Of a DNA stretch of 64,000 nt, positions 24,535-47,613 are shown in pieces. Source of the stretch: Promethearchaeota archaeon (GTDB lineage Archaea > Asgardarchaeota > Thorarchaeia > Thorarchaeales > Thorarchaeaceae); assembly GCA_048939765.1 (NCBI GenBank), contig JBHLPF010000020.1, positions 4,527 to 68,526 on the forward strand, written 5' to 3'. The notes below the pieces were generated by a model that worked only from the letters and a program-made list of their open reading frames with translations, ran no database searches and had not been told where the DNA came from. Position 1 is the stretch's first letter, and every line of letters begins with the position of its first letter. The position numbers were made by a program, and so were the translations under genes.

Positions 24535-24535
24535 T

Positions 24536-25084: not shown

Positions 25085-27111
25085 GCACCTCCAGATGTCT
25101 TCTCAGCCTGTTCACGGCTTCTGTGTGCTGAGATGAGACCGAGTATCTCAGCCTCTATCTGCTCTGTTGTGAAGTTTCTTCTAGAGATGGCCCCAGTCGG
25201 ACAAACGACCTGACACTTCCCACATCCTGTACATAGAAGCGAGCTCACTTCCGCCAGCCCGCCTCCGTCTTCATTGACAACCATAGATATTGCAGCGAAT
25301 GGACACACCTTCTCGCAAAGACCACAGCCAATGCATAGCGTTTTATCGAGCACAGCCTTGTCCATCTGAACACGGACTGTCCCCTTGAGGACATGTGAGG
25401 CGGCTGCACTTGCTGCGGCTTTTCCATCAGCAACACTTGCTGGAATGTCCTTAGGACTCTGACAGGCTCCAGCGATAAATACACCCCTAGACTTGGTGTT
25501 CACGGGTTCGAGCTTCGGATGTAGTTCCTTCATGAAGCCACCTTCACTCCGGTCCACTCCAATCATATGCGCCAAATGTGCTGCTCCCGGTGATGGATCG
25601 ATAGCCATTGTCAAGACAACCATGTCAAAGTTCAGACGCAGTAGACTGCCTGTCCCCTGATCAAACACGGTGAAGCTGATGCTGCCGTCCTCTTCCTCCA
25701 CCATGTCACTTGGAAAGCCTCGAACAAACCTCACTCCACTCTCTCTCACTCGTCTATAGAACTGCTCGTACTCCTTACCACCGGCTCTGAGCTCATGATA
25801 GATTATCCATTGTTCAATCTCATCGGGGTACAGTCTATTGGTCATCTCAGCATGTCGCAGAGTGTACATACATCCGAAGTTACAGCACCAAGACCGATGA
25901 TTTTCATCCCTTGATCCTGCGCAGTTGACATACGCAATACGCTTGGGAACCCTCTCGAACTTTGGAGGCAAGAGTATCTTCCCCTCAGTTGGTCCCACAA
26001 GACTCAATAGACGACCATATTGACCTGCAGTCAACACGTTGGTGAATTTCCCTCCTCCATACTCTGGCAGCTCCTCGATGTCCATCTCTTTGTATCCAGT
26101 TGCAGCTAGGATTGCTCCAACAGTGATCTCAATCTCTTCCTCTTCCACATCGAATGAAATGGCTTCACGAGGACACTTCTCTTTGCAGATGGAACAACCT
26201 TCTGTCCAGTGAAGACATGATTCCCTATCGAGAAAGAACACACCTGGGACAGCCTGTGGGAACGGCTTGTATACTGCCTTTCTCTCTCCAAGTCCAAGGT
26301 TCCACTCATCAGGACCAGTTGCAGGACAGTTACGCTCACAGGCCCCGCAGTTGATACACTCCTCCATGTTCACATACCTAGGTTTCTTCTTGATGCGCAC
26401 CTTGAAGTTACCATAGTCTCGCTCAACATCAATAACCTCTGAGTAGCTGAGCAGCTCAATGTTCTTGTGACGCTCTATTGCAGACAGCTTGGGTGAGAGA
26501 ATGCACATCGAGCAGTCAAGGGTTGGAAAGGTCTTCTCCAGACGGGCCATATATCCACCAATTGATGTGTACCTCTCTACAAGGTAGACTTTGATGTCCT
26601 TGTCCGCTAGGTCAAGAGCAGCCTGTATGCCTGCAATTCCAGCACCAATCACTAGAGTACTCTTTTCCACAGGGTATTCTTCAAACCCGATGTCCTCCAG
26701 CTTCTTTGCCCGTTCAATGGCCCCCGCCACGAGGTCATATGCAATCTTGTATGCCTCCTCTGGTTTATCACCATGAACCCATGTGTCATGCTCTCTAAGG
26801 TTTGCTTGTGCAAGGCGGAATGGGTTGAGGCCACTCTCTTCAAGTATCTCTCTGAATAATTGTTCGTGGAGCTTGGGTGTACAGGCTCCGATGACGACAC
26901 CCGTGAGGTTATGCTCTTTGACCTTCGAAGCTATCGAGTCCTGTCCATCTTTTGAACAGGTGAACATGTTTGACGTGGAAAACACAACACCAGGATAGTC
27001 CTTGAACTCTCGAGCCAGTTTCCTTACGTTGATTACACCACCAATGTTTGTCCCACAGCTGCAAATGAAGACTCCAATCCGATCTTCCTCTTTCTTCTTC
27101 TTCTTTGTCAA
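25081..27111 (-). CDS. hdrA: Heterodisulfide reductase subunit A (canonical)
   Basis: GVFICSCGTNI, GAGIAG, KTFPTLDCSMC, CAGSRD..WCCNFGC and ferredoxin motifs. Confidence 0.95.
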   Translation of the reverse strand: MTKKKKKEEDRIGVFICSCGTNIGGVINVRKLAREFKDYPGVVFSTSNMFTCSKDGQDSIASKVKEHNLTGVVIGACTPKLHEQLFREILEESGLNPFRLAQANLREHDTWVHGDKPEEAYKIAYDLVAGAIERAKKLEDIGFEEYPVEKSTLVIGAGIAGIQAALDLADKDIKVYLVERYTSIGGYMARLEKTFPTLDCSMCILSPKLSAIERHKNIELLSYSEVIDVERDYGNFKVRIKKKPRYVNMEECINCGACERNCPATGPDEWNLGLGERKAVYKPFPQAVPGVFFLDRESCLHWTEGCSICKEKCPREAISFDVEEEEIEITVGAILAATGYKEMDIEELPEYGGGKFTNVLTAGQYGRLLSLVGPTEGKILLPPKFERVPKRIAYVNCAGSRDENHRSWCCNFGCMYTLRHAEMTNRLYPDEIEQWIIYHELRAGGKEYEQFYRRVRESGVRFVRGFPSDMVEEEDGSISFTVFDQGTGSLLRLNFDMVVLTMAIDPSPGAAHLAHMIGVDRSEGGFMKELHPKLEPVNTKSRGVFIAGACQSPKDIPASVADGKAAASAAASHVLKGTVRVQMDKAVLDKTLCIGCGLCEKVCPFAAISMVVNEDGGGLAEVSSLLCTGCGKCQVVCPTGAISRRNFTTEQIEAEILGLISAHRSREQAEKTSGGA

Positions 27112-28026
27112 CTAGGAGTCCACCTCCAGTTTCCCTCTGACAGGACTAGGTCCCAAATTCTTGATCCTCTCAACAAACTCAGTCACAATCTCTGCAAACT
27201 TTACTCCCATAGCCGCTGATGCAAAGTCGATGTATAGCCTACCACCAAGACCAATATCCTCAAGCATGCTTTGCCAGAAATGAACGAAGTCAGCCTGCAT
27301 GAAGTTTCCAGCCAGTGGGTCATCACCGCCATAGTGACATTCAGACAGAAGGCACCCTGTCACCAATACTCCATCTACTCCATTCTCCAAGGCGGTCATT
27401 ATCTGAATGGGTTCCACTGCGCCACTACAGGGAACTCTTACAGTGCGAATATTGGTAGGATAATGTAGATGCATCAGTCCAGCCAGATCAGCGGCGGAAT
27501 GAGAACACTCCCAACACACGAAACAGATTATGAATGGCTCCCAGTCAGACACCTCTACTGATGGAGGTGCTTCTACCTCACCTATGACACTCACCAAGTC
27601 ATAGGTCTTCTCCAGTGTGAGGCAGTCCTCTGGACAAGCCTCAACACACTTGTTACAGGCAATGCATCTTTGAGCTGACCAAATTATGGAACCGTATCCT
27701 GGAAGACCAGCGGGTACAGATACGACTTGCGTTTCACCATTCTGATTCAGCGCCTGTAACAGTGATATCAGGGATCCACGGTTTTTAGACCTGAAACCAT
27801 CCTCAGGCAATACTGCCGCTAGATAATCTGGAAGTCTCACTGATGCCTCCAAGTCAAGAGCCTCAACCTCGCACGCCTCAATGCACTTCTTACATGCACT
27901 GCACGAAGGCGGCCTGTAACTAATGCTTCCAAATCCCTCCACTTTCTCTGGCACTTCCAGAATCTGGGTTGGCGTCTGCACTGCAATGTTCCGTATCTTC
28001 TGAATGAGTCGTTCACGCTTATCCAT
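27112..28026 (-). CDS. Ferredoxin-MvhD fusion
   Basis: Two CxxCxxCxxxC motifs followed by MvhD (CWECS, VPCSG, GCLLSECHY). Confidence 0.85.
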   Translation of the reverse strand: MDKRERLIQKIRNIAVQTPTQILEVPEKVEGFGSISYRPPSCSACKKCIEACEVEALDLEASVRLPDYLAAVLPEDGFRSKNRGSLISLLQALNQNGETQVVSVPAGLPGYGSIIWSAQRCIACNKCVEACPEDCLTLEKTYDLVSVIGEVEAPPSVEVSDWEPFIICFVCWECSHSAADLAGLMHLHYPTNIRTVRVPCSGAVEPIQIMTALENGVDGVLVTGCLLSECHYGGDDPLAGNFMQADFVHFWQSMLEDIGLGGRLYIDFASAAMGVKFAEIVTEFVERIKNLGPSPVRGKLEVDS

Positions 28027-29983
28027 GCAGCCCCACCTCCTTCTGCATCTTCTCAGGCGTAGCCGCCATCATATATGTCGCAAGAACCTGGGCTGGGTCT
28101 TGACCTATCTCACGTAACAAATCCTTGGTAAGGCGTACAACAAGCTCTGAGTGATGATCACCGCTCTGGTGATGACATCCGCCAGGTGGACAGTGTGCCA
28201 CAATGACTCGCTCCGCTCCTACAATCAGGCCCTTTAGAATCTCAATAGGGGAAACCATCCCAGCACAAGGGAACTGAATCACATAGGTTCCTGTAGAATA
28301 GATCTTTCCAGCAAAACCAGCTTGGTCCACAGACGCGTTGGCACACTCACTACACGCGTAGATGAGTGTGAATGGGTTCTTCTTCTCAAGACGCTTGTGG
28401 GTCTTAGCTATCATCTCGAGTCTCGCAAACCAGCTCTCCTTGCTGTGTGATTGGAACTCAATAGCACGGGTTGGACAGGATGACACACAGATACCACAGA
28501 ACTCACAGTGTGCAGGAATGTGAATCACTTTGTCATCGTACAGACGTAATGCATCATTGGGACAGGCCTCAATACAGGCCTTACAAGCATCACATGTTTC
28601 GTCATCGATGACAGGCATCCATCCAGAACGCTGTAAGGGAGTCTTGACTATCTTTAGGGCCTCCAAGACGGCATTCTGAGCCGAAGCCAATGCATGTGAG
28701 AGGCCCATTGGCATCTTCGCCCCTCCTGCCACAAACATACCCCTTCTTGAGGTCTGTACTGGTTTCATCTTGTCGTACCTAGTCTTGATGAAGTTGTGAT
28801 CATTGCGTTCCAGACCAAGTGTGGTTGCCAAGCGGGCCGTGTCGCTGACTGGGCTGACCACCTGAAACACTGCGATGGTATCCACGGTGACCTCTCTCTC
28901 CATCGATTCGAGCGTGCTGTCAATAAGGCATGTCATACCCTCATCGTGTTCCTTGACCTTGGTCAACCCACCACGTACAAAGATCACTCCGGAGTCCCTG
29001 GCTTTTCGATAGAGATTCTCGTCCTCTGTCCTGATGCTTGAATGGGAAACAAAGACAGTGTTTCCTAGACTAGCAAGAAACTCAGCTGATCTCAGGAGAT
29101 GACTCCCCTCAGCTGAGCACATCTGGACGTCGGGATCGGTCACGACCAAGATGGTCGAGTTCCCCTTTACATCCTTCTTCCTGGGTCTCCTGACTAGGCT
29201 CTGAAGAGTCACAACCCTGTCGGATTTCCCATAGCGACACTTCCTTGCTATGCCAGGGAGGTAGTACTCAGTGCCTGTAGCGATTATGACCGCTCCATAG
29301 TCCTGCGTGGTCATGACGCCATTGGAGTCTTTCAAGGTGATCTCGTACGATCCCATCTGCCCTTGGACCTCTTGCACAGAACCCTGGACGCGCTCCACCT
29401 TAGTGAGTGATTTCTGAAGGGCCTCAAGTTCTTGTGTTAGCAACTCCCCCTCACCCATGTACAGAGAGGCTTCATAATACTTGTCATCATTCTGATCCAT
29501 TGGCTCAAGAAGAGTAACTCCCAGATTCAGATGTTTAAGATCTGATGCAGCTCGTAGACCAGCAATCCCGCCTCCAATAACAAGGACCCTTTCAATCACA
29601 TTCTCCCTGAATTCAGTCGGTGGTTCGATATAGTCCAGCTTTACTGCAGCATCAGATAGAAGGACGATGGCCTTGTTTGTCGCAGACTTACCCCCATCTG
29701 GATGAACCCAAGCTACGTGTTCTCTGAGAGGTACAAAAGAAATGAGTTCATGCTTGGTAGTCTGTTTCACTGGAATACCAATGATTTGAGAACTGCATGC
29801 TCCAATCGCCACGCTATCATCCTTTGAGAGGCTCATTTTGAGCTTGGATAGTCCTTCCTCCAAACAGAGACTGTCAACAGTTTCAATGATGTCAAAGGTC
29901 TTTGCCAGCTCCTTCTCAATCTTAGAGAAGTCCAATGTCCGATTGAGTGTCTTGTTGCAGGTGCAGAGAAACAGCTTCTTCAT
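28019..29983 (-). CDS. Divergent HdrA-ferredoxin-MvhD fusion
   Basis: LCTC, REHVAWVH and GGGIAG motifs; C-terminal 2x4Fe-4S and MvhD (CSEC, FPCAG, HCPPGGCHH). Confidence 0.85.
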   Translation of the reverse strand: MKKLFLCTCNKTLNRTLDFSKIEKELAKTFDIIETVDSLCLEEGLSKLKMSLSKDDSVAIGACSSQIIGIPVKQTTKHELISFVPLREHVAWVHPDGGKSATNKAIVLLSDAAVKLDYIEPPTEFRENVIERVLVIGGGIAGLRAASDLKHLNLGVTLLEPMDQNDDKYYEASLYMGEGELLTQELEALQKSLTKVERVQGSVQEVQGQMGSYEITLKDSNGVMTTQDYGAVIIATGTEYYLPGIARKCRYGKSDRVVTLQSLVRRPRKKDVKGNSTILVVTDPDVQMCSAEGSHLLRSAEFLASLGNTVFVSHSSIRTEDENLYRKARDSGVIFVRGGLTKVKEHDEGMTCLIDSTLESMEREVTVDTIAVFQVVSPVSDTARLATTLGLERNDHNFIKTRYDKMKPVQTSRRGMFVAGGAKMPMGLSHALASAQNAVLEALKIVKTPLQRSGWMPVIDDETCDACKACIEACPNDALRLYDDKVIHIPAHCEFCGICVSSCPTRAIEFQSHSKESWFARLEMIAKTHKRLEKKNPFTLIYACSECANASVDQAGFAGKIYSTGTYVIQFPCAGMVSPIEILKGLIVGAERVIVAHCPPGGCHHQSGDHHSELVVRLTKDLLREIGQDPAQVLATYMMAATPEKMQKEVGLHG

Positions 29984-31249
29984 CTAGGCACCCCCTAAGT
30001 CCATGTAGACCTGTAATGCCACAGAGTTTGCCTCAGTTACACTCGTGGGGATGTCAGTAGGTCCTGTTGATGTCCCACAAGCATAGATCCCTTTCTTGGA
30101 GGCCTGACGGGAGACGAATCCATACTGGTCAAGCATTGCCATGAATTCTTCATTCTCAGATGCGAGAGGGATGAGGGGTGAGGCCAATACAACAAGGTCT
30201 GACTCAAGCTCAAGTCGTTTCTTCGACTCGGTGTCCTCCACAACTGTGACCGGAGCCTCATTTCGGATGATGACGTGGTCAGGCTTTCCTCGCACAAAGC
30301 TGACCCCTAGCTCTCTTGCTAGATCGAGATAGTGCTGACTATGAGGCGGGATTCGGAGGTCCATGTAGCATATAGTAACGTTGACCCCTAGACCTCTCAG
30401 CATGGTTGCATGCTTCAAGCTATATGTACAGCAAGCCTGTGAACAATACTCGACCGCGTTCAGGTCCCTACTGCCTGCACACAGAACCATCGTGACGGAT
30501 TCCACTGGATTTCCTGAGGAGGTGAGGACTGAACCATTTGTAGGCCCTGTCGAGTCAAGAAGACGAGCTAACTCTCGTTGAGTAAGGATATCGTCGCACT
30601 CGCCATATGCATATCCGGGAAGCGAGATTGGATTTCTCTCCTCCACACCAGTCGCAATGACCACTGCATCAGCCTTCACAGTATGGCTCTTGGCTTTCTG
30701 TTCTAGATTGATGGCATCCACTCCGCAGACCTCAACACATTTCCCGCACTTGTTGCAAGACTCGATGTCAATCACTGGGATGAGTGGGGCTCCCTGTGGA
30801 ATTGGTCTGTAGATGGCCTTCCGCTGGCTCTTCCCGAGGTTCAGCGCGTCTGGTACCTCAACAGGACAGACGTTGATGCACTCCAAACACACGACACATC
30901 TGTCTGTCGAAATGAGCCTCGGAGCGGTCCGGAGGGATACAGAAAACTTACCTCCATCCTTCTTTATGGATTTGACATCGGTCAATGTATGGAGTGTCAA
31001 CCCCTTCTGTAGACCAAGTAGGCTCCTATATTGACAACGACGATGTTTCCCATCATACAATTCCTCACAAACATCAAGGCAAAGTGCACAGTCGTCAGTA
31101 GGAAAGACCTTGCCAAGATGAGTCGAGAGACCCCCCACTGTTGCTTCCTTCTCTACCAGATGAACTCTCAACCTGAGATCTGAAAGCTGTTGAGCGACCT
31201 GTATGCCTGCAAGTCCAGCTCCAATCACAACTACAGTCTTCGTCGTCAT
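29984..31249 (-). CDS. Short HdrA-like flavoprotein (core plus inserted ferredoxin)
   Basis: GAGLAG, KVFPTDDCALC and CAGSRD..YCSQACC motifs; lacks HdrA N- and C-terminal domains. Confidence 0.85.
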   Translation of the reverse strand: MTTKTVVVIGAGLAGIQVAQQLSDLRLRVHLVEKEATVGGLSTHLGKVFPTDDCALCLDVCEELYDGKHRRCQYRSLLGLQKGLTLHTLTDVKSIKKDGGKFSVSLRTAPRLISTDRCVVCLECINVCPVEVPDALNLGKSQRKAIYRPIPQGAPLIPVIDIESCNKCGKCVEVCGVDAINLEQKAKSHTVKADAVVIATGVEERNPISLPGYAYGECDDILTQRELARLLDSTGPTNGSVLTSSGNPVESVTMVLCAGSRDLNAVEYCSQACCTYSLKHATMLRGLGVNVTICYMDLRIPPHSQHYLDLARELGVSFVRGKPDHVIIRNEAPVTVVEDTESKKRLELESDLVVLASPLIPLASENEEFMAMLDQYGFVSRQASKKGIYACGTSTGPTDIPTSVTEANSVALQVYMDLGGA

Positions 31250-32148
31250 TTGCCAACCTCCATCTTCTCCAACAGAGGCTGGATTTTCACTCTATGATAC
31301 CTTCTGGAATTATCAACAACAAGATCTGTCAGTCCCATTGCAAGAGCGAGCATCTCTCCTAAGTATAGAACAGGCAGACTGAATTCTGGATCCAAGTACT
31401 CGATGACCTTCTTCTGCTGCATCTCCATCTGGGTGTAGCAGGTTGGACATACCAACACTATGGCATCTGCACCAGCGTCTCTTATCTTTTCCAGCTTCTT
31501 GGCTGTCAGGGCAAGAGATTTGGACTCATCCGAAGGGGAGATTGGTGCTCCACAGCATGCCATCTTGTCAGGATAGTCTATCGGATTGGCACCTGTCACC
31601 TCAATCAAATCATCCATCCACCTCGGGTCCTCTGCATCATCCATATGAGTCGCATCAATTGGCCTTACAAGATGACACCCATAGTGAGCAGCAATTGAGA
31701 GATTCTTGAGAGGCTGAACTATGTTCTTTCTAATCTTGTCTAGACCCACGTCCTCATGCAATACATGTAGAATGTTCTTCACGCTGACTTCTCCTGTGGC
31801 CTCCATTCCAATCTTGTTCAGTCGTTTGTTTATACGCTCGCGAATTTCGCTGTCGGATTGCAGTGTGTGCCTGACTAAAGCCAAAGTATGGAAGCAGCCA
31901 CTGCATAATGCCACCGTGTCTCTTCCAGTGCCCTCACTGACTGCAATGTTTCTAGCTCCAATTGTGAGCCATGCTTCAAAATCCACACCAGTGAAAGTTG
32001 TTGGTTCTGGGCAACAAGTATGTCCTTCATCAGCGATAAGCTCGATATTCAGTCGGCTTAGAACCTCCCGCATCGTTAGCTCGAAGTGTGGGAGTCTGAA
32101 TGGGATCATACAGCCAGGGAAGTATGTATATTCAATGGCTTTACTCAT
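31246..32148 (-). CDS. hdrB: Heterodisulfide reductase subunit B (second copy)
   Basis: FPGC, TCCP, CSGC, HYGCH, ACCG and CPTC motifs. Confidence 0.9.
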   Translation of the reverse strand: MSKAIEYTYFPGCMIPFRLPHFELTMREVLSRLNIELIADEGHTCCPEPTTFTGVDFEAWLTIGARNIAVSEGTGRDTVALCSGCFHTLALVRHTLQSDSEIRERINKRLNKIGMEATGEVSVKNILHVLHEDVGLDKIRKNIVQPLKNLSIAAHYGCHLVRPIDATHMDDAEDPRWMDDLIEVTGANPIDYPDKMACCGAPISPSDESKSLALTAKKLEKIRDAGADAIVLVCPTCYTQMEMQQKKVIEYLDPEFSLPVLYLGEMLALAMGLTDLVVDNSRRYHRVKIQPLLEKMEVGK

Positions 32149-32659
32149 CGACATCATCTCCTTCGATTGAATCGAGCCTCTTAGCAAGCCCTAGTTCCTT
32201 GAGTACCTTAGAAAGCTGCTCAACTGGAGGACTTCCTAGAGATGGAAGCCCCATTTTATCGCGGGTCTTGAGCATGGGGTCACTAACTTGGATTGTTCTT
32301 CCCTGTGACATAATAGAGCGAGCGCGTTCTAGAGCTATCTGAGGTGTATTTCCAATCGCTAGACCTCTGACCTTGGCAAGGATCAGAATCTGAGGTATTT
32401 TCACATGCTCAGGACATCGTACCTCACATTGCTCACAGGTAAGACAGGACCAGATGAGTTGATTCTCCGTTAAGGAATCATCAGCAAAGATGACTTTCTC
32501 AAGGAAAAGACGAGGATTGAAAGATGAATCAATCTCAGCGACAGGACAGGCACTAGTGCATCGCCCACACTGATAGCATCTAAGCAGTGTTTCTCCTTCT
32601 GGTTGTTGGAGAATCCAGTTTCTAAATACAAGGTCAGACGATATGTTACTGGAAGCCAT
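32141..32659 (-). CDS. hdrC: Heterodisulfide reductase subunit C (second copy)
   Basis: CYQCGRCTSACP and WSCLTCEQCEVRCP motifs. Confidence 0.9.
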   Translation of the reverse strand: MASSNISSDLVFRNWILQQPEGETLLRCYQCGRCTSACPVAEIDSSFNPRLFLEKVIFADDSLTENQLIWSCLTCEQCEVRCPEHVKIPQILILAKVRGLAIGNTPQIALERARSIMSQGRTIQVSDPMLKTRDKMGLPSLGSPPVEQLSKVLKELGLAKRLDSIEGDDVDE

Positions 32660-32721
32660 ATACAGCAACTCCGTTTTATGGATGTGCAATAAGAGAGGTC
32701 ATCGAAGTCACATCTGAATGA

Positions 32722-37568: not shown

Positions 37569-37833
37569 ATTTGGTGAGATTTGTTGGCGCGAATTCCTGT
37601 GATAGTGTCCGTGCTTGAAGAGGGCAATTCAGGAAAGATTGTGACAGAACCGGGAAACCTGACTCAGGAATTCGACAAGGTATATGATAAGCAGAGGGCC
37701 ATCATCGATGGGATTCCAAGTATTGGCTGCCCTGTCATTGCCATAGTCAGGGGTGTCTGGGGGGACTAGCGGTGCTATATGCCAGTGTCAAGGGAATCCA
37801 TGCGACTGCAAGAAGAACAGGATTTGTATAAGT

Positions 37834-40176
37834 ATGAAAAAGAAAGCACACTTCAAAGCTGACGAAGCGAAGACCGCTTTGGGCATCTTCAAAGGCCTTG
37901 AGATCAGAATTGGCCAAATTGTGGATGACGAATGGGATGAGCCAATGGGGCCGACCCCAATGCCGAGTCCAACCGGTCTCCGTTCTTGGGATCACAAACT
38001 CTTGTCCAAATACCAACCATCCTACATGCCTTATTGCCAAGTCTGTTGTCTATGTACATTTGGCAAATGTGACCTCTCTGGTGACAAACGAGGCGCTTGT
38101 GGGATTGACCTGAAAGGGCAACAGGCAAGGATTGTGCTTGCAGCAGCCAATATAGGCAATGCAGCACATTTGGCGCATGCAAGACACCTGGTTGACCACC
38201 TAATTGATGAATTCGGTCCTCAGACCGAACTTATTCAAGGGCCTGGCACTGAGATACATGCACCTGTTTCACGGTTGGCAACTGGGATGCGACCAAGAAC
38301 TCTCGAGGATGCAAGCATCATCCTTGACTACTGCGAGAGCCAGCTAGCACACACTCTCTCAGCAGTACATACTGGCCAAGAGGGAAGCTGGTTGGACTTT
38401 GAGAGCAAGGTTCTCCATGTTGGTATGATTGACCAAATAAGCATGGAGATTGCAGACCTTGTTCAGATTGCCACTTTGGATTTTCCAAAAGCCGACCCAG
38501 AAGCACCACTTGTTGACTCAGGCATAGGTATGATGGATACCAGTAAGGCTATCGTTCTAACCATTGGTCATAACATTGTACCAGCAGCATCAATAACTGA
38601 CTATATTACCGAAAAGAAACTGGGAGGGCAAGTCGAGGTAGGTGGGATGTGCTGCACTGCTTGGGACATCACACGACGTGATCCAAGCGCCAAGGTTGTT
38701 GGGCCAATCTCATGGCAACTTAGATACATACGAAGCGGCAAGGCGGATGTGGTGGTAGTTGACGAACAATGTGTGCGGACTGATGTTGTCAGTGAGGCTC
38801 AGAAAGTAAAATCGCCAGTCATTTCGACCAGCGACAAGGCCGTTATGGGGCTGCCTGACAGATCTGATGACTCGATTGACTCGATTGTGGAGGAACTCGT
38901 ATCAGGGAAAATACCTGGCGCATATATCCATGACCACCATAAGGTTGGAGCAGTGGCAACCAAAGTAGCCATTGCTGTCATGCCAAAGAGAAGGAAGATG
39001 AAATTCTTCCCGACGAAGAAGCAGATCCAGAAGATGGCCCAAGATTGCAAGAAGTGCAGCGAGTGCATTCGGTCATGTCCGAATAATCAGCCAATCATGG
39101 AAGCTGTTCTGGCGGCACAGACAGGGAATTTCGAGCCATTACGTGATGTCTATCGCAACTGCATTGGATGTGCACGATGCGAATCTGCATGTCCCAATGG
39201 CTATGATTTGCACAGTTGGATGGTTGTTGCAGCAGAAGAAGATTGCAAGAATGAAACCTACAAGCTTCGAACAGGCAGAGGTGCAATCCAGGACACTGAG
39301 ATCCGAAGTGTTGGACAACCCATCGTCTTTGGCGAGATACCTGGAGTGATTGCTCATGTTGGCTGCGCCAACTATCCAGGCGGAGGGGAAGACGTCTATG
39401 AGATGGCTGAGGAGTTCGCAAAGAGAAGATACATCATATTGACCTCTGGATGTGCGGCGATGTCAGCAGGCTCTGTAAGAGATGAGAATGGACAATCAAT
39501 CTACGAGCGACGTGGTGGTGAATTTGATGCGGGTTGCGTAGTCAATGTCGGTTCATGCGTTTCCAATCCCCATATCGCCGGTGCAGCAATAAAGATTGCA
39601 GCGATTTTTGCCAAGAGGAACTTACGAGGCAACTACGCAGAGATTGCCGACTATATCCACAACCGTGTGGGGGCAGTAGGGATATCTTGGGGTGCCATGT
39701 CACAGAAGGCGGCCTCAATAGCGTCGGGGTTCTGGAGACTTGGTGTTCCTGTGATTGTGGGACCGCATGGCTCAAAATATCGCAGGATGCTGCTTGGTAA
39801 AGCGGAGGATGAGGAGGCTTGGACTGTCTACGATGCGCGCACTGGAGAACGCGTAGTAACTGCGCCGGGTCCTGAACACCTCTTCTATGCCGCCGAGACT
39901 GTTGCGGAAGCCAATGTGATGACAGCAAAGCTCTGTATTAGGCCCAATGACACAAGCAAAGGACGAGCCATCAAGCTGAGCCACTACATTGACATCCACG
40001 AGAACTCGTATGGCTTCTTCCCGGAGGATGTCTGGAGATACATCCGTCGTGAAGCGGATATACCAATCACATTGAAGGACAAGATTCTGGCTCAAATGAA
40101 GGAGAACAAATGGAAGGAGAGGACAATTCCAGATCCAACGCTTCTGAAGGAGCTAGTCGTGGGAGGTGGCAAATAA
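37834..40176 (+). CDS. cdhA: CO dehydrogenase/ACS complex alpha subunit
   Basis: EPMGPTPMP, CCLCTFGKC, GHN, GGMCCT, 2x4Fe-4S, GSCVSN and IPDPT motifs. Confidence 0.96.
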   Translation: MKKKAHFKADEAKTALGIFKGLEIRIGQIVDDEWDEPMGPTPMPSPTGLRSWDHKLLSKYQPSYMPYCQVCCLCTFGKCDLSGDKRGACGIDLKGQQARIVLAAANIGNAAHLAHARHLVDHLIDEFGPQTELIQGPGTEIHAPVSRLATGMRPRTLEDASIILDYCESQLAHTLSAVHTGQEGSWLDFESKVLHVGMIDQISMEIADLVQIATLDFPKADPEAPLVDSGIGMMDTSKAIVLTIGHNIVPAASITDYITEKKLGGQVEVGGMCCTAWDITRRDPSAKVVGPISWQLRYIRSGKADVVVVDEQCVRTDVVSEAQKVKSPVISTSDKAVMGLPDRSDDSIDSIVEELVSGKIPGAYIHDHHKVGAVATKVAIAVMPKRRKMKFFPTKKQIQKMAQDCKKCSECIRSCPNNQPIMEAVLAAQTGNFEPLRDVYRNCIGCARCESACPNGYDLHSWMVVAAEEDCKNETYKLRTGRGAIQDTEIRSVGQPIVFGEIPGVIAHVGCANYPGGGEDVYEMAEEFAKRRYIILTSGCAAMSAGSVRDENGQSIYERRGGEFDAGCVVNVGSCVSNPHIAGAAIKIAAIFAKRNLRGNYAEIADYIHNRVGAVGISWGAMSQKAASIASGFWRLGVPVIVGPHGSKYRRMLLGKAEDEEAWTVYDARTGERVVTAPGPEHLFYAAETVAEANVMTAKLCIRPNDTSKGRAIKLSHYIDIHENSYGFFPEDVWRYIRREADIPITLKDKILAQMKENKWKERTIPDPTLLKELVVGGGK

Positions 40177-40718
40177 TGGTGATGAGACCGGTACCCTGGC
40201 AGACAGGAGAGATCTGCGGCCCTGATAGTGCAAAGTCACTCAACAAAGCCGCCCAACTCAAAAGAGCCTTCACAAAATCAAAGAAACCCCTATTGATTGT
40301 GGGATCAGATGCGGTTAACATGACACATGGGAAGGGCAACATGATTGACTATGCAATAGCCCTTTCAGAGGCTGGTAAGATACCGATTGTCGCGACTGGA
40401 GGCGCAATCAAGGCTTTCATTGAGAGGGGTTTTGAGGGCTGCAAATCAATGGGTGCAATGGAATTGGCAAACTACCTTCAAGATGAGTCGTGGCCAGGCC
40501 CCCATGGAAAGGGTCCTCAAGATTTGATTCTGATTTATGGCATCCCATACTATATGCAATGGACGCTGCTATCTGCCGTCATGAACTTCGGATCTCACCT
40601 GACAAAGATTTCTTTGGGGCGCTATTATCAACCACATGCAGACTGGTCATTCCCGAATATGAAAGAGAACCAATGGCACGATATTCTAGATGAGATTCTA
40701 GAGTTCGTGCGTGACTGA
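40176..40718 (+). CDS. cdhB: CO dehydrogenase epsilon subunit
   Basis: PWQT, KKPLLIVG, WPG..GKG.QDL and YYQPHADWSFPN motifs. Confidence 0.93.
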   Translation: MVMRPVPWQTGEICGPDSAKSLNKAAQLKRAFTKSKKPLLIVGSDAVNMTHGKGNMIDYAIALSEAGKIPIVATGGAIKAFIERGFEGCKSMGAMELANYLQDESWPGPHGKGPQDLILIYGIPYYMQWTLLSAVMNFGSHLTKISLGRYYQPHADWSFPNMKENQWHDILDEILEFVRD

Positions 40719-41045: not shown

Positions 41046-42749
41046 CTACTTTGCCTTCACAAGTTGCTCAGGCGTTTGGATTTTTCCTGTGAGTACCAAC
41101 TCTTTCAAGATGGCGCGCGCCATTTCGAGCGCAGAGGCATCGTCATAGATTCCCTTTCCCTTCTCGCGTGCTTCCGTCAGAATATCTCTTTGAACCTTGA
41201 GCTTTAGGTCACCGACGGCTAATGGTCCAATACCGAATTTGCCAGAGGCTAATTCCCTCAAGTCGTCAGATGGCTTTAGGCCTGCAATGCCAGGTGGAGG
41301 AACGGCATTTGCATCAAGTAGTATCTGGTTGGCGGACACATTCTCAAGAAGGTCTTTGGTCACGAGTTGAATGCCTGGAGCGCCAGTCACAAAGACAAGA
41401 GTTGCTTTCTCCAATGCAGCTTGTGTTTCTTCAGGTGTTGATGCCTGAATACCCTTAATCTTGAATTCATCCGTCGACAAGCGTTCTGCTACCTCTCTAG
41501 CACGGTCGGCACTTCTTGAGGTCAGGGTGGTCTTTGCACCTGCAGCTCCGCATAGCGCGGCAACGCTTTCACCTACAGGTCCAGTGCCTGCAAGTACGAG
41601 CACTTTCGCCTTGCTAAGTGATTTCACACCCATGGCTGGAAGGGAGGCTTCTGCCTTTGCAACCAAAGCGGCTGATGTGGTAAATGCACCATGAGGATCA
41701 ACGACGACTGCTGTCGTAAATGGCTTGACCATGGCCTCTTTCACATCTTTGGCCATCTTCCGAGCAGTAGGTACATCACGTCCTCCTAGGAAGAAACTCG
41801 TTTGCTTTACGCCTTTCACACCCCTAGAAAAGATGGCATCCTGAACAAGCGTTGTTACGTTGTCAGCTGATACCCTTGGATAAGGTACTACGACGTCAAA
41901 ACCAGCGTCATACGCAACGCAGATGTCAAACGGACTGGCGTAATCATCCGCCTCTAAGAAAAACAGGATGTTCTGCATCTTAGTCTTAGGACGTTTTACG
42001 ACAGGCACCATTTTCACAGAGGAGATTCCTGTCAGTTCGGTGATGCCTTTCACCTTACCCCCAGGAGCCTCTGAAGCTACGCTCTTGAAGGATATGGGTA
42101 CGACCTCTACGTTGAGGGTTTCCATAAGTTCTCTTAAGCCTTGGAAGTGTTGCGGACTACACAGATGCAGTGCCTTGACTTTCTTCTTATTGAGAGAATC
42201 GGCTTCCTTGAGAATGCCCATCGCGATCCAGCTCTCACGGATTCCAAACTCGATGTCGCGGATTTCATCCTCAAGCTGATTCTGTAGATACTGACCGTAC
42301 GTAGCAAGCTGGTCGATCTGATGCACCGTTTCAGAGTCTTCATCACGTTCAGAGAGAGACTCTATGGCTTCGAAAATCTCATTTCTTCGGTCAATCTTTT
42401 GCTCGAGACTATGAGCCAAGTAGGAGCGAGCGAACTCATCCATCTCGACAGCCTTATAGGGGACTCCTAGCTTGGCGAGTGTTTCCACGAGTGGATTCAT
42501 CTCTAGAAACTCCTTTGTAGAACGCATCCCCATCTCATCTGTGACAAAGTCAGGTTCCTCCTTCTCGGCCAGTGATTTTATCATCTCACAATAGGCCATT
42601 GAGGCGCGCTGAATGAATCTTATTCCAGACTCTGATTCCTTCAACGGAGAAGAGGTCACCCACCATGGTTCATCGTAGGCTTTCTGCACCAACAGTAAGC
42701 GAAGGCTCTTCCCTTTCAGTGGAGTAAGTTCAAGTGTTTCCAACTTCAA
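41046..42749 (-). CDS. NAD(P)-dependent methylene-H4MPT dehydrogenase (MtdA/MtdB type) fused to an N-terminal TraB/TIKI-like domain
   Basis: C-terminal SPFD..AYDAG, QDAIFSRG, DPHGAFTT, AGTGPVG and DANAVPPPG motifs; ~255-aa N-terminal extension. Confidence 0.8.
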   Translation of the reverse strand: MKLETLELTPLKGKSLRLLLVQKAYDEPWWVTSSPLKESESGIRFIQRASMAYCEMIKSLAEKEEPDFVTDEMGMRSTKEFLEMNPLVETLAKLGVPYKAVEMDEFARSYLAHSLEQKIDRRNEIFEAIESLSERDEDSETVHQIDQLATYGQYLQNQLEDEIRDIEFGIRESWIAMGILKEADSLNKKKVKALHLCSPQHFQGLRELMETLNVEVVPISFKSVASEAPGGKVKGITELTGISSVKMVPVVKRPKTKMQNILFFLEADDYASPFDICVAYDAGFDVVVPYPRVSADNVTTLVQDAIFSRGVKGVKQTSFFLGGRDVPTARKMAKDVKEAMVKPFTTAVVVDPHGAFTTSAALVAKAEASLPAMGVKSLSKAKVLVLAGTGPVGESVAALCGAAGAKTTLTSRSADRAREVAERLSTDEFKIKGIQASTPEETQAALEKATLVFVTGAPGIQLVTKDLLENVSANQILLDANAVPPPGIAGLKPSDDLRELASGKFGIGPLAVGDLKLKVQRDILTEAREKGKGIYDDASALEMARAILKELVLTGKIQTPEQLVKAK

Positions 42750-42825: not shown

Positions 42826-42849
42826 CAATGACAACAATATTTGTCATTG
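42826..42849. promoter_or_regulatory. Palindrome CAATGACAA-N6-TTGTCATTG upstream of the mtd fusion
   Basis: Perfect 9-bp inverted repeat; related site at 47592-47613. Confidence 0.65.
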
Positions 42850-42874
42850 CGACTAGTCACATATCACACAAAGA

Positions 42875-44209
42875 TCATTTCTGAGAGTGACGGGTCTTCG
42901 TCTGTGAGTGTGTAGCACATGACACACAAGGATCAAAACAGCGTATAATCATCTTGGCATAATTGATGATTCTATCATCTGACCATCCCAATTTGCTGCA
43001 GTTTCTAGTGGCTTTGGTCAACAAATGGACCATGGCAGCAGCATTCAGTTCTGTCGGAGTACAAATGTCAATATCGTTCACAAGCCCACCTGCACTGACT
43101 TCAAGCCGATAAAGCAGAGTTCCTCTGGAATTCTCAACGCACCCCCCACCTATGCCATCAATTGGGTCCCAGGTAGCTACTGTGCCCTCATCTGGTTTCC
43201 ATATATTATCAAGAAGATGGAGTGCCCTGAGAGTACAGAACTCCATTTCATCTAGTCTAAGCAAACCAGCATTGAACATGTTCGGACCATCTCTGGCGAT
43301 GCCTTCTTTCTGACCTGACAGATTCTGAATCGCAGCTAATCTTGCATGTGGACCAGTCAACAAGGGGCTGCTGGGTTCTTCCTTAAAGCTATAGATGATG
43401 CGAGTTGGTGCCTCTGATTTCCCTTGAATTTTCAAGTGAGTAGGATAGACAGAAGAGGAGAAAGCGCAAACGAGGGAATCAGATTTGATAATTGAAACTT
43501 CATCTGTGCCTGAAAATCGATGCCCCCTTGTATCGAAGCAACTTACAAACAATGGTGATTCGAGATAAAACGACAGAATATCGTCCTGTATTTCGTTGAG
43601 GATTGATTTGTAGAAATCCTTTGCCCATTTGATTCCAGCTAATCCAAGCTGCAAAGAGCTTCGCAGCTCCTTTTGCTCTTCATCTGTTATGTTGCGAAGA
43701 AAGCCGCCTAGTGTTATTGCAGGCGCCAGGTTGGCATCGCCGGCTATTATATCGACCATCTCTTGACTACTTCGGTAGAGATTCATTCCCTGAGAGAGAA
43801 GACGCTGCTGAATCTTTCCTTTTCCCAGTGTATCCTGTCTGGAGAGTGTTTCTGTTAAGCTAAGTAGATCGGGGGATGTACAGAAGAATACACTATATGC
43901 GTGTGAACGGATAATTTCACCCAAGATGGCAAGCTCTCGAAGTGTTTCAGCTAGCGGTGGCACAGAAATACTACTCGCCATTTCTATGGCCTTAACAGCG
44001 GCGATTCTATGTGAAACAGGACATGTTCCACAGATTCGTGCAACTAGCCTGGGCAAGTCTGCAATTCGCTGACCACGGAGAATTTGAATGAAATCCCTGA
44101 ATGTTTTCATTCGATACGTCAGATTAAGTTCGCCTCGAGCAGGGTGCCGAATCAACAGCTCACTTGGGCCGCCAACCTTGGTGAGGGGCTTTGACAACGG
44201 TATCTTCAT
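42875..44209 (-). CDS. Divergent group 3-like NiFe hydrogenase large subunit
   Basis: L1 RICGTC and L2 DPCVSCATH present; the RxEG motif reads KVGG. Confidence 0.88.
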   Translation of the reverse strand: MKIPLSKPLTKVGGPSELLIRHPARGELNLTYRMKTFRDFIQILRGQRIADLPRLVARICGTCPVSHRIAAVKAIEMASSISVPPLAETLRELAILGEIIRSHAYSVFFCTSPDLLSLTETLSRQDTLGKGKIQQRLLSQGMNLYRSSQEMVDIIAGDANLAPAITLGGFLRNITDEEQKELRSSLQLGLAGIKWAKDFYKSILNEIQDDILSFYLESPLFVSCFDTRGHRFSGTDEVSIIKSDSLVCAFSSSVYPTHLKIQGKSEAPTRIIYSFKEEPSSPLLTGPHARLAAIQNLSGQKEGIARDGPNMFNAGLLRLDEMEFCTLRALHLLDNIWKPDEGTVATWDPIDGIGGGCVENSRGTLLYRLEVSAGGLVNDIDICTPTELNAAAMVHLLTKATRNCSKLGWSDDRIINYAKMIIRCFDPCVSCATHSQTKTRHSQK

Positions 44210-44940
44210 TAGCTCTTTCCCAACTCCGGTTTTTGATAGCGAAGGGCAAGAGCCGCTAGTTTGCGGATCTGAGGACTGATTCTCAAGACTGAGAAGAAGT
44301 TCGCTATGGCTGCGGGCATACTTCGCTTCAATGTGCCAAAGCAGCCATCACATGGTGTTCCTGCCATCAAACACCTCGCTTCACAACCGGCCCTTGTGAT
44401 TGGACCCAAGCAGAGGACACCTTCCCGAATGAAACAGCTCTTTGGAGGCCTTGGTGGATTGATGCAGTTGATTTCAGTGGAGTAGTCTTGGTCCATTGTG
44501 TAGGGACACTCAGCGCAGACATTCTTCTCAGGAAGTATGAAATCGGTCCCTTGAATCGCAGAGAGCAATAGATTTCCCATTAGATACTGAGGCGGAGGAC
44601 AACCCGGGAGCAGGGCGTGCAAATCAACATATTTGCCCACTGGGTACACTTGCATGTTTTCCGATTGACTCATAATACCACCAAGGACTGCACAAGTTCC
44701 TAGAGCAACTATCTTCGCACCATCAGTGTAGAGCTGACGAAGGAGATTCGCTTCGGATTCATTTGTAACGCACCCTTCTACAAATGCTATCTCTGCTCGT
44801 TTAACAGAATTCTGGTCGGAGATGATAGGGAAGTAGCAAATATCCGCCGATTTTATGATATCAGGAAAGACAGGATTTGCAAGTAGCGAAAACAAACACC
44901 CGCCACAAGAGTTGAGTTGGACGAAAGCAAGTCGAGTCAT
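44209..44940 (-). CDS. NiFe hydrogenase small subunit (MvhG/HydD-like)
   Basis: SCGGC, EG, GTCA..GG, PGCPP, VCAEC, CLGPITRAGC and PCDGC motifs. Confidence 0.9.
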   Translation of the reverse strand: MTRLAFVQLNSCGGCLFSLLANPVFPDIIKSADICYFPIISDQNSVKRAEIAFVEGCVTNESEANLLRQLYTDGAKIVALGTCAVLGGIMSQSENMQVYPVGKYVDLHALLPGCPPPQYLMGNLLLSAIQGTDFILPEKNVCAECPYTMDQDYSTEINCINPPRPPKSCFIREGVLCLGPITRAGCEARCLMAGTPCDGCFGTLKRSMPAAIANFFSVLRISPQIRKLAALALRYQKPELGKS

Positions 44941-47468
44941 GTTTCAGTCGCCCCTCTCAAATCTTCTGCGAATTGATTGATATGATCTGCCACTATATGC
45001 CCTTCCAATGCTGATACTTTCAACACACGCACTCTGTTTTGTAACTCAGGCCCCAGAAACTCAATGAGCGCTTCAATCCGCTTGGTAGCTACTTGGATCC
45101 CATCGAGATGCCTACAAGCAGTTTCATGACACCCAATTAAGGTGATACCATCAAACCCAGCCTGTAGCGACGTTATTAGAAGATCGGCATCAATAGAGAC
45201 GGTACATGGCACACTGAGGAGGTAAGATCCGGCGTCATATTCGTACCGACGAGCGCCTGCATTGTCTACAGCAGGATAACCACAAGATTCACAACACAAG
45301 ACTAGGATTTTGGGAGATTTTTTCCCTTTTGATAGAGCTGAGATTGCGGCCCGCATTTCATCCTGAACACTCGATGCAGTAATAGCACCCGTGTGGCATA
45401 CGACCGCACACACTCCGCAGTTTCGGCATCCAAAGGAATCTATACGAATCGTATTCTCAACAAGTGCTATGGCATTATGAGGGCACGCCTCGACACACAG
45501 ACCGCACACTCCACATTTATCCTGGTCGACAATTACCGTCAACTCGCCAGTTTCAAAACTATCGCGACCGAGGAAGAGGAGCGCCTCCAAGGCTGCTAGT
45601 TGTGCTTCACTCTCGAGCTGGGGATATGGCTTAGGACCTGTTACAGCACCACAAGCCCACACGCCTGTTGGAAGACTCCGGGCGTCCACAAATCCTCCAG
45701 ATTTGAGATTGAAACCAATTTCAGCTTGGAGCTTCGTCATGCGCTCATCTGGAGTCATTCCCATGTTGAGTACTATTAGGTCCCCACTGAAGTCACCAAC
45801 ATCAGTCTTGATAACATGATGACGCTTCCTCATGTACGATTGCAGGACATTGCAGACATGTACACGCTCGTCCTCAGGAATTATTCCAGTGTGCGCGTGT
45901 GGTAAGCGTGAACGCTCATATAGAACCTTGACTGAAATCTCGTCATCCATATCATCTATTAGACCCATGTATTTGTGTGCAACATTGCAGCAATAACCGG
46001 AACAGACAGTTTCAGAACCTACACACTGTAGGATGATTAATGATTTCACAGGCTTCCCATCGGAAACGCGAAGGATTCGTCCTTGAGTGGGGCCATCAGG
46101 AGCAAGCATGCGTTCAAATTCGTAGGATGATACAACATCATTGTAGGGATCATAGGACAAGGGATGAGAAGAAGTCAAATCTTCAGCATTAGGAAGAACT
46201 GCACCAGTGGCTAGGATAGTCCCTCCAACTGTGAACTTGACAATCTTAGATTCTTGATCCAGATCTATTGCATGTGATGGGCATGCCTCCAAGCAGTCAC
46301 GACATGACTTGCAGAACTCGATATCGTCTACCTCAATGACGGGCTTATGAGGATAGGCAAATGGACAAGGCAGGTGAATTATTCGATGTTGTCCGATGCC
46401 AAGCTCAAACTTATTGGGCCTGGTTTCCGGGCAGGCCATGGTGCATTCTCCACACATTGTGCAGCGAGTTAAATCGACATAGCGTGGAGATTGGATGGCT
46501 GTGACTTCATAGTTACCCGCCTCTCCTGTTATGCTTGCGAGTTCGCTTTCCGTGAAAATGCGCACATTTCCAGCAAGCATGACCGATGAAACTAGCTCAC
46601 TAATCATACAAGGGCTGCAGTCGACTGACCCATGTATTCGTTCCCAGTGTCTAGCAGTTCCACCCAGACAGGGAGCACTCTCGATTAGTATCACCTCTAA
46701 CGGAGACTTGGAAAGCACGTTAGCTGCAATCAATCCTGCAATTCCCCCACCGATGATGGCCACGCTCTTGCGAATAGGTACCACCCTCCTTGTAGCATGG
46801 ACATAGTGATGTAGCTTCGCCACACTGGCCGCAATCAATAACAGTGCTTTTTCGGTAGCCGACTCAGGATTGCGACGATGGACCCATGAACAATGCTCTC
46901 TGATATTGGCGAACTCAACAGGCATCTCAAGTTGTTCGCATATCTTGCTGAACAAGTCATGGTGTAATCTTGGAGAACAGGCTGCGACTACCAGACCATT
47001 CAGAAAGTGCTTGCCGCACCACGACTTAATCTTCTCCACATTATCTAGCATGCACAGGAAGGGGAAAATCCTCTTGGCCATGACAGTTGGTAGCTCTGAA
47101 ACCTTTTCTATGAGTGCTGTTGTGTCTATCGCACGGTCAATCTCAGACCCGCATGAACATAGGATAACTCCAATTCTGTGAACCCTATCAATGGTTTCAG
47201 TGATGTGTGCCTCAGTTGGTCTACCAGTCATTAATTGATCTTTTGTTGACATGAGACGGACTGCATTCTGACCTGCTGCTGTAAGCCGATAGAGGCCGTG
47301 ATGCTTCTCTACGAATCCATCTAGCTTCTTGAGATGATAGTTTAGTAGGCCAGTTTCATCTAGTCCTAATCTACTCAACAGGGTCTTGTAGGGAACCAAC
47401 CGATCAGAATCAAGAAGCTTCAGTATCTTTTCTCGCAAAGGATGTGCGAGGGCAGCGTATATGTTCAT
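44937..47468 (-). CDS. Winged-HTH-HdrA-ferredoxin-MvhD fusion protein
   Basis: N-terminal ALAHPLREKILKLL...LLNYHLKKL...YRLTAAG; HdrA motifs (CSCG, NIREHCSWVH, GGGIAG, QCVGS..CSGYCC); MvhD motifs (CCESCG, VPC, GCHETACRH). Confidence 0.88.
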   Translation of the reverse strand: MNIYAALAHPLREKILKLLDSDRLVPYKTLLSRLGLDETGLLNYHLKKLDGFVEKHHGLYRLTAAGQNAVRLMSTKDQLMTGRPTEAHITETIDRVHRIGVILCSCGSEIDRAIDTTALIEKVSELPTVMAKRIFPFLCMLDNVEKIKSWCGKHFLNGLVVAACSPRLHHDLFSKICEQLEMPVEFANIREHCSWVHRRNPESATEKALLLIAASVAKLHHYVHATRRVVPIRKSVAIIGGGIAGLIAANVLSKSPLEVILIESAPCLGGTARHWERIHGSVDCSPCMISELVSSVMLAGNVRIFTESELASITGEAGNYEVTAIQSPRYVDLTRCTMCGECTMACPETRPNKFELGIGQHRIIHLPCPFAYPHKPVIEVDDIEFCKSCRDCLEACPSHAIDLDQESKIVKFTVGGTILATGAVLPNAEDLTSSHPLSYDPYNDVVSSYEFERMLAPDGPTQGRILRVSDGKPVKSLIILQCVGSETVCSGYCCNVAHKYMGLIDDMDDEISVKVLYERSRLPHAHTGIIPEDERVHVCNVLQSYMRKRHHVIKTDVGDFSGDLIVLNMGMTPDERMTKLQAEIGFNLKSGGFVDARSLPTGVWACGAVTGPKPYPQLESEAQLAALEALLFLGRDSFETGELTVIVDQDKCGVCGLCVEACPHNAIALVENTIRIDSFGCRNCGVCAVVCHTGAITASSVQDEMRAAISALSKGKKSPKILVLCCESCGYPAVDNAGARRYEYDAGSYLLSVPCTVSIDADLLITSLQAGFDGITLIGCHETACRHLDGIQVATKRIEALIEFLGPELQNRVRVLKVSALEGHIVADHINQFAEDLRGATET

Positions 47469-47591
47469 AGTTGTATCGCCCTTTAACCTGACTAGTTCTG
47501 GTGGAGCCCGCAGGAGCCAAGAGCTTCCCGTGCTAGACAGGACACCGAAACTTGCAGTTTCGTTGTCAGGTCCACATTCTTTGCGAGCAAT

Positions 47592-47613
47592 CATGACAAT
47601 AAATGTTGTCTTG
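47592..47613. promoter_or_regulatory. CATGACAA-N6-TTGTCTTG site upstream of the HTH-hdrA operon
   Basis: Same spacing and near-identical half-sites as 42826-42849. Confidence 0.6.

Follow-up and report, generated by a model that had tools for sequence, protein, structure and literature searches.

Several enzymes that also act as transcription regulators have been described. PutA of enterobacteria, a flavoenzyme whose N-terminus carries a DNA-binding domain, is a repressor of its own operon, and the redox state of its flavin switches the protein off DNA. PutA combines a ribbon-helix-helix domain with membrane association, and BirA and NadR are other such trigger enzymes. An archaeal case is RbkR, a riboflavin kinase joined to a winged helix-turn-helix regulator, which was validated in vitro and senses cytidine triphosphate and flavin mononucleotide according to the part of the report available to us (PMC5397151). 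Here we examine a candidate of this kind in a 64,000-nt stretch of DNA (the window) from a member of the Thorarchaeaceae (Promethearchaeota archaeon, assembly GCA_048939765.1, contig JBHLPF010000020.1). In this window an ArsR-like winged helix is fused to HdrA and MvhD, partners of a [NiFe] hydrogenase, and a palindrome upstream of the resulting operon and of the adjacent gene mtd is a predicted operator.

RbkR and the present protein are alike in being archaeal fusions of an enzyme with a winged helix-turn-helix, and the operators of RbkR, as given in the available text, were predicted by comparative genomics at its own and at pathway genes. However, RbkR is a small kinase with ligand-tuned DNA binding, whereas the protein in the window is a predicted 843-aa electron-bifurcation subunit with flavin adenine dinucleotide (FAD) and Fe-S clusters, assigned to a hydrogenase complex. 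With PutA the protein shares the combination of a flavoenzyme and an N-terminal DNA-binding domain in one chain. It differs in that the ribbon-helix-helix of PutA is replaced by an ArsR-like winged helix on HdrA, whose redox switching would be hypothetical. An enzyme and a DNA-binding domain in one chain, with a predicted operator at own or pathway genes, are the marks of a trigger enzyme and are both present at this locus. The fusion is best read as a putative bifunctional enzyme-regulator of the RbkR, PutA and BirA kind.

ArsR/SmtB repressors act as dimers on inverted repeats in the promoters of their own genes. The winged helix in the window shares its fold and its type of recognition helix with these proteins (CadC 1U2W, CzrA 1R1V, AF 1Y0U), yet it has no metal-binding cysteines or histidines, scores under the cut-off for the HTH_20 family and is fused to an enzyme. 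For the enzyme part, the methanogen complex MvhAGD-HdrABC (5ODC, 9SW2-6; PMC13580544, in the part available) has the corresponding HdrA cluster motifs and supplies the closest solved relatives of the hydrogenase subunits, MvhA and MvhG. In contrast to that complex, MvhD is here fused to HdrA as in HdrA2, the operon is without HdrBC, and the subunits are shorter and divergent. No solved HdrA carries an N-terminal winged helix. BamF of class II benzoyl-CoA reductase has a winged helix within an MvhD-like adaptor, where it contacts another subunit, and no operator is described in the available part of that report (10.64898/2026.04.10.717634); in the window, by contrast, the winged helix is N-terminal, sits on a floppy linker and is accompanied by a conserved palindrome.

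In the literature searched we found no description of a helix-turn-helix on HdrA, and the term DUF7347, the Pfam family of the domain, was not found there either. A survey of archaeal fusions reports HdrA-HdrA-MvhD fusions and, in the part available, none with a helix-turn-helix, while its Table S2 and Fig. S5 may bear on the point (PMC11237513). The Asgard genes are treated as group 3c hydrogenase and Hdr in the available part of another study (PMC11291895). Enzyme-regulator fusions are known, yet one on the electron-bifurcating partner of a hydrogenase was not found in the literature searched. Syntrophy models of the origin of eukaryotes give a central place to the hydrogen metabolism of Asgard archaea, and to our knowledge nothing is known of how this metabolism is regulated. 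If the reading given here is true, the state of an enzyme would be linked to gene expression in a new way, through a DNA-binding domain in the electron-bifurcating partner of a hydrogenase; the predicted operator measures 20 bp, and the fusion is present in roughly 30% of sampled Asgard genomes.

Conservation of the fusion gene

The list of open reading frames (ORFs) of the window places four minus-strand genes head to tail, encoding the fusion protein (44937-47594), the [NiFe] hydrogenase small subunit (44209-44940), the large subunit (42875-44209) and Mtd (41046-42749). Overlapping stop and start codons link the first three, in agreement with an earlier note on this DNA, made from its letters alone, in which both hydrogenase genes were said to follow the fusion gene in this manner. 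The long ORF begins at 47594, which would put the palindrome over the start of the gene. This placement does not hold up: relatives of the fusion protein are 840-857 aa long and in alignment begin at M43 of the long ORF, and a GGAGG-like box precedes the equivalent ATG in relatives, so the gene probably starts at the ATG at 47468 rather than at 47594. From that ATG the gene (44937-47468, stop codon included) would encode 843 aa. Counted in this way, residues 1-82 (47223-47468) form the ArsR-like winged helix-turn-helix and residues 83-97, approximately, a variable low-confidence linker (47178-47222). They are followed by the HdrA core (45315-47177), with an N-terminal [4Fe-4S] domain, an FAD domain holding the HA4 motif, and inserted and C-terminal ferredoxin domains, and by the MvhD (FlpD) domain (44955-45308). 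Pfam finds FlpD/MvhD (PF02662) at residues 763-880 of the long ORF (E 1.6e-25), together with a Rossmann/FAD site and two 2x[4Fe-4S] ferredoxin domains. The Pfam domains and the HdrA motifs thus confirm that an ArsR-like winged helix stands in frame with a full HdrA, ferredoxin and MvhD.

Residues 1-158, which cover the winged helix, the linker and the start of HdrA, were searched in all six frames against 400 genomes of the phylum. Matches were obtained in 128 genomes, about 120 of which have the whole query in a single open frame of about 850 aa; the other eight contain stand-alone winged helices or deletion remnants. The hydrogenase small subunit is found in 121 of the 400 genomes, and 114 of these belong to the fusion set. 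In six of the remaining seven the contig breaks off within hdrA, and in one hdrA is missing next to the small-subunit gene; among the 121 no operon of this type was seen in which HdrA is demonstrably without the winged helix. In 18 of 20 fetched 12-kb loci the fusion gene is followed by the small-subunit and then by the large-subunit gene; of the two exceptions, one is cut by a contig end and the other has a truncated gene. Contigs from three other studies span the junction without indels. On this comparison the fusion is conserved and no artefact, and both the check for an artefact and the search for the architecture elsewhere, as proposed in the earlier note, come out in its favour. In all 80 matches listed (there are 52 further matches) the relatives are Asgard metagenome-assembled genomes, the nearest labelled Thorarchaeota and others Hermod-, Prometh-, Hel- and Hodarchaeota. 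The family is narrow, since about six representatives of the architecture remain after clustering of a library at 50% identity. In the locus with the truncated gene (L048, genome G280) the fusion gene is a 645-aa frame and the small-subunit gene is located elsewhere on the chromosome.

The N-terminal domain matches DUF7347 in Pfam (residues 45-114 of the long ORF, E 3.6e-13, 50 bits against a cut-off of 27.6) and HTH_20 weakly (21 bits against a cut-off of 27). It is at least as conserved as the HdrA core in 18 of 20 loci, for example with 72 versus 55% identity; the exceptions are L049, with 35.4% for the winged helix and 38.4% for the core, and L043, where both stand at 39%. There is almost no variation in the recognition helix, TGxLN(Y/F)HLKKL. 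AlphaFold2 gives an α1-α2-α3-α4-wing-α5 topology with a predicted local distance difference test (pLDDT) value of 84 and a low-confidence stretch after it, and residues 84-94 fall below 50 in the full-length model. Foldseek neighbours are mostly DNA-binding repressors (CadC, ArsR, PagR, CzrA, HlyU and MarR-type proteins), at weak E-values of about 0.004-0.02, while a sequence search of solved structures returned a sole, marginal match to the archaeal ArsR-like 1Y0U (E 0.028). As modelled, the winged helix has a repressor-type fold. Residues 1-82 are without cysteine and no ArsR-type metal- or thiol-sensing site was found in them, so a signal, if any, would need to come from the enzyme. A complex prediction for the HdrA-MvhD core (residues 96-843) and the winged helix (1-82) scored 0.00 and was used neither way.

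The palindrome and its association with the winged helix

Palindrome 1 (47595-47610) has the core GACAA-N6-TTGTC, extended to AGACAA-N6-TTGTCAT, and is located 127 nt upstream of the likely fusion start. Palindrome 2 (42830-42845), extended to ATGACAA-N6-TTGTCAT, lies between the large-subunit stop and the mtd start. The two sites had been noted earlier as a candidate target upstream of the operon and of mtd, and they prove to be conserved at both places. The core occurs three times in the window (positions 65, 42830 and 47595) against 0.13 expected, a number that none of 100 shuffles reaches; the site at 65-80 is inside an ORF and is taken as chance. In a genome-wide scan, as had also been suggested, the degenerate form GAYAA-N6-TTRTC was found 20 times in the 3.37-Mb genome, and of the three sites outside ORFs of at least 120 aa two are Palindromes 1 and 2. 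The third (C108 position 1668), between an ATP-cone-like ORF and a membrane protein, has no evident link and may be chance.

Conservation was assessed over 21 loci (229 kb), in zones made up of positions -250 to -1 relative to the fusion start and the gap between the large-subunit gene and mtd. Controls were the 19 other half-site permutations of equal composition, palindromic and with a 6-nt spacer. GAYAA-N6-TTRTC has 19 occurrences in the zones and 8 elsewhere, versus 1 in the zones and 33 elsewhere for the 19 controls together. Upstream of the fusion the site is exact in 14 of 30 loci (own family 3/7, f14 5/6, Loki-type 6/17) and present with at most one mismatch in 19, and the best control reaches 1/30 exact. 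Where an mtd gene lies downstream, the mtd-proximal site is exact in seven of nine loci, with six different spacers. Palindrome 1 is identical in the two closest genus mates and is kept in other families, and the extended consensus is ATGACAA-(AT-rich N6)-TTGTCAT. Half-sites that are conserved around freely varying spacers are what a protein-binding site usually shows. As compared across these loci, the palindrome is a conserved cis-element at the fusion operon and at mtd.

Some genomes of the same family that are without the fusion encode stand-alone paralogues of about 180 aa, in which a DUF7347 winged helix is combined with transmembrane helices. Their winged helix is 45-51% identical, with the recognition helix STG(R/K)LNYH(L/I)KQL. 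Eight of nine such loci carry GACAA-N6-xTGTC at a fixed -78/-79 from the paralogue's own start; three of the eight sites are exact, each being the sole match in its locus of 2-3.5 kb. The controls gave no exact match at these loci and at best 3/9 at one mismatch, and the motif was not found at distant paralogues with an altered recognition helix. The stand-alone paralogues have this palindrome in front of their own genes too, and the motif therefore goes with the domain and not with HdrA. The palindrome was thus found together with the domain, a check that the earlier note had set for its proposal, both in the enrichment at fusion loci and at the paralogue loci. This type of winged helix appears to read the palindrome, and the co-occurrence at the paralogues is the strongest argument for it.

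Membrane-anchored DUF7347 proteins span 150-290 aa (L071-L078 and L099; C50:20227-20418 and C98:16169-16414 in the genome of the window), and the paralogue on C50 has a GTCAA-N6-TTGAC palindrome upstream instead. In the f14 loci L035-L038 a conserved ORF of 80-82 aa with two CxxC...CxxC zinc-ribbon motifs is located about 130-390 nt upstream of the fusion gene. Three of these four loci (L036-L038) contain an extra GATAA-N6-TTGTC about 180 nt upstream of the zinc-ribbon ORF.

Probable autoregulation and its alternatives

Taking domain and site together, we consider it fairly probable that the winged-helix protein binds the palindrome and autoregulates the operon, and mtd as well; the fusion protein itself would presumably be the binder. 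In the mechanism we propose, an Mvh-type [NiFe] hydrogenase would work with an HdrA-MvhD flavoprotein that bears the winged helix on a floppy linker, about 15 residues long, and the winged helix would act as a sequence-specific binder of ATGACAA-N6-TTGTCAT. Since HdrA is dimeric in solved complexes, an HdrA dimer could offer two winged helices to the two half-sites, 11 bp apart. The protein would in this way control its own operon and the co-inherited mtd at the level of transcription. The sign of this control is most likely repression, because the AT-rich spacer may hold a TATA box.

A number of observations weigh against autoregulation, and they are given here with the explanations that they would favour. 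The upstream site is absent, even with one mismatch allowed, from 11 of 30 loci (4/7 in the own family and 7/17 of Loki-type). Palindrome 2, which lies 30 nt past the large-subunit stop, forms a stable hairpin as RNA (-12.1 kcal/mol, z -4.3), and the spacers, being AT-rich, could be TATA boxes read by general factors. The palindromes might then be hairpins that mark 3' ends or stabilise the RNA after the hydrogenase genes, or else core promoter elements, in either case unrelated to the winged helix. Shuffled sequences, however, fold as well as Palindrome 1 (z 0.05). The letters of the half-sites are conserved rather than covarying, variants such as GACAA...TTATC break the pairing, and composition-matched palindromes are absent from the same zones. 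A role of this sort is accordingly given very little weight.

The remaining points against autoregulation concern the winged helix itself, which could be a structural adaptor or dimerisation module that docks on the hydrogenase, on the N-terminal domain of Mtd or on another partner, with a different factor binding the palindromes. The winged helix of BamF contacts BamI in a complex of HdrA/MvhD type, according to the available part of that report (10.64898/2026.04.10.717634), and the Foldseek matches include the dimerisation winged helices of the methyltransferases PigF and SgvM, which do not bind DNA. The co-inheritance with mtd is also relevant. The mtd product consists of a 270-aa N-terminal domain of no known family and an MtdA-type methylene-tetrahydromethanopterin dehydrogenase (Mpt_N in Pfam, E 2.7e-29); the name given to the gene in the earlier note therefore suits its MtdA-type part and leaves out the additional domain. 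An Atlas search with the N-terminal domain returned unnamed Asgard clusters only, with TraB/GumN (0.77) as a weak lead. Within the family, mtd is present in 10 of 86 genomes, and in each of them either the winged helix is present too or the contig breaks off there; this perfect co-occurrence with the N-extended mtd would suit an adaptor.

In two genomes (L056/G343 and L057/G358) hdrA-mvhD and both hydrogenase genes have been deleted and the winged helix is left directly before mtd, as a 90-aa ORF in G343 and fused in frame to mtd (671 aa) in G358. These remnants are changed at otherwise near-invariant positions. Their ratio of nonsynonymous to synonymous substitution rates is 0.67, a noisy value from 80 codons, versus 0.17 for mtd of the same pair and 0.11 for intact winged helices. 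Such relaxed constraint after the loss of HdrA suggests that the domain is not kept as a free-standing regulator and that its function depends on HdrA, which fits an enzyme-coupled regulator but also a structural role. What an adaptor does not account for is the palindrome upstream of stand-alone paralogues that have neither HdrA nor hydrogenase. The nearly invariant recognition helix of ArsR type and the low confidence of the linker in the full-length model also speak against docking. Nor was another conserved regulator gene found beside the operon that could supply the different factor; the upstream neighbour in the window encodes a 225-aa membrane protein that has no Pfam match and is not conserved. 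We therefore regard a purely structural role as unlikely and retain autoregulation by the winged-helix protein as the preferred reading.

In Loki-type genomes (L042, L043 and L045) the Mtd N-terminal domain occurs as one or two separate genes, encoding about 205-220 aa, divergently upstream of the fusion. These genes share the regulatory region of the fusion, an arrangement that fits the two sites in the window.

The hydrogenase complex and possible gating of DNA binding

The earlier note described the fusion as a repurposed bifurcating-enzyme chassis accompanied by a non-canonical hydrogenase. The HdrA core aligns to residues 5-633 of 5ODC_A and keeps the GxGxxG that binds FAD as well as the cysteine motifs for each of the six [4Fe-4S] clusters. 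C386, C399, C403 and C404 (5ODC numbering), which we take to be the ligands of the HA4 cluster, are among the residues kept in the HdrA of the window. HA4 passes the high-potential electron towards HdrB, according to the available part of the report on the methanogen complex (PMC13580544). Ten of 21 loci, the window among them, have kept the HA4 motif, and all 11 Loki-type loci are without it. The top NCBIfam model for the fusion is HdrA2, at 496.6 bits, under its curated cut-off of 1100.

The small subunit, of proximal-cluster type, is MvhG-like, with 243 aa, 15 cysteines and a Pfam match to Oxidored_q6. The MvhA-like large subunit (444 aa, NiFeSe_Hases in Pfam) has a short C-terminal tail and both Ni-Fe ligand motifs, L1 RxCGxCxxxH and L2 DPCxxCxxH. 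The nearest solved relatives are MvhA for the large subunit (5odc_F, E 2.5e-37) and MvhG for the small (9sfi_I, 5odc_E), and both subunits score far under the NCBIfam cut-offs (VhuA 87 versus 800 bits, VhuG 124 versus 450 bits). By its motifs the hydrogenase is divergent and Mvh-like, and the term non-canonical does not apply to its catalytic ligands. In the lineage of the window the fusion protein looks like a complete bifurcating flavoprotein. Because all HdrA cofactor motifs, HA4 included, and the Ni-Fe ligands are kept, the operon looks like a working enzyme that additionally bears a DNA-binding domain, rather than a repurposed chassis. A selenocysteine considered for the small subunit of relatives was discarded, the in-frame TGA having turned out to be a stop codon.

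No CCG-domain (HdrB/C) gene was found in the operon, and HdrB/C pairs are located 10-20 kb away in a separate cluster at 23665-32689, as the earlier note had stated. Candidates for the high-potential partner are this adjacent HdrBC cluster and the co-inherited Mtd. Genes of this kind, labelled 'hydrogenase iron-sulfur subunit' or 'HdrA' in annotations, would not simply be methanogen-type Mvh-Hdr: the operon is without HdrBC, is linked to an N-extended Mtd and belongs to a family in which HA4 has been lost in Loki-type lineages.

The N-terminal domain of HdrA, to which the winged helix is attached, is part of a mobile arm that changes state during turnover in the methanogen complexes, as described in the available part of PMC13580544, and the state of the enzyme could for this reason gate binding. 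Given that DNA is bound, we see the chances for and against gating by redox state, H2 turnover or complex assembly as about equal. A winged helix that binds the palindrome constitutively would instead keep the operon and mtd under plain negative autoregulation or dosage control, with no redox, H2 or assembly signal. Such a simpler role is in keeping with a domain that has no cysteine or metal-site residues of its own and with a disordered, variable linker, through which coupling to the core may be loose. A regulon as tiny as this one, with two to three intergenic sites genome-wide, is what simple autoregulators typically have, and the stand-alone paralogues resemble autoregulators too. However, about 120 genomes retain the domain joined to a large redox enzyme, with no unfused form of the operon seen, and the remnant decays after the loss of HdrA; both suggest that the enzyme part matters for the function of the domain. 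Constitutive binding is thus a real but lesser possibility beside the broader reading of autoregulation. More specifically, the hydrogenase-HdrA complex could itself be the H2/redox sensor, its catalytic or redox state setting how well the pair of winged helices fits the half-sites with their 11-bp spacing. This proposal is a tentative one that we would not call likely. If it is true, the availability of H2 would act directly on how the hydrogenase operon and mtd, a step of the Wood-Ljungdahl pathway, are transcribed in Asgard archaea, with no separate sensor.

The operon is situated among Wood-Ljungdahl genes. The alpha (807 aa, Prismane/CO dehydrogenase family) and epsilon subunits of CO dehydrogenase/acetyl-CoA synthase (CODH/ACS) are encoded at 37753-40718 on the plus strand, convergent with mtd. 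The cluster at 23665-32689, on the minus strand, is free of hydrogenase genes and holds no copy of the palindrome. Its genes encode, in order, HdrC, HdrB, three HdrA-like proteins, ferredoxin-MvhD, and the HdrC and HdrB of a second HdrB/HdrC pair. The HdrA-like products are 421, 654 and 676 aa long, and the one of 654 aa carries an MvhD domain.

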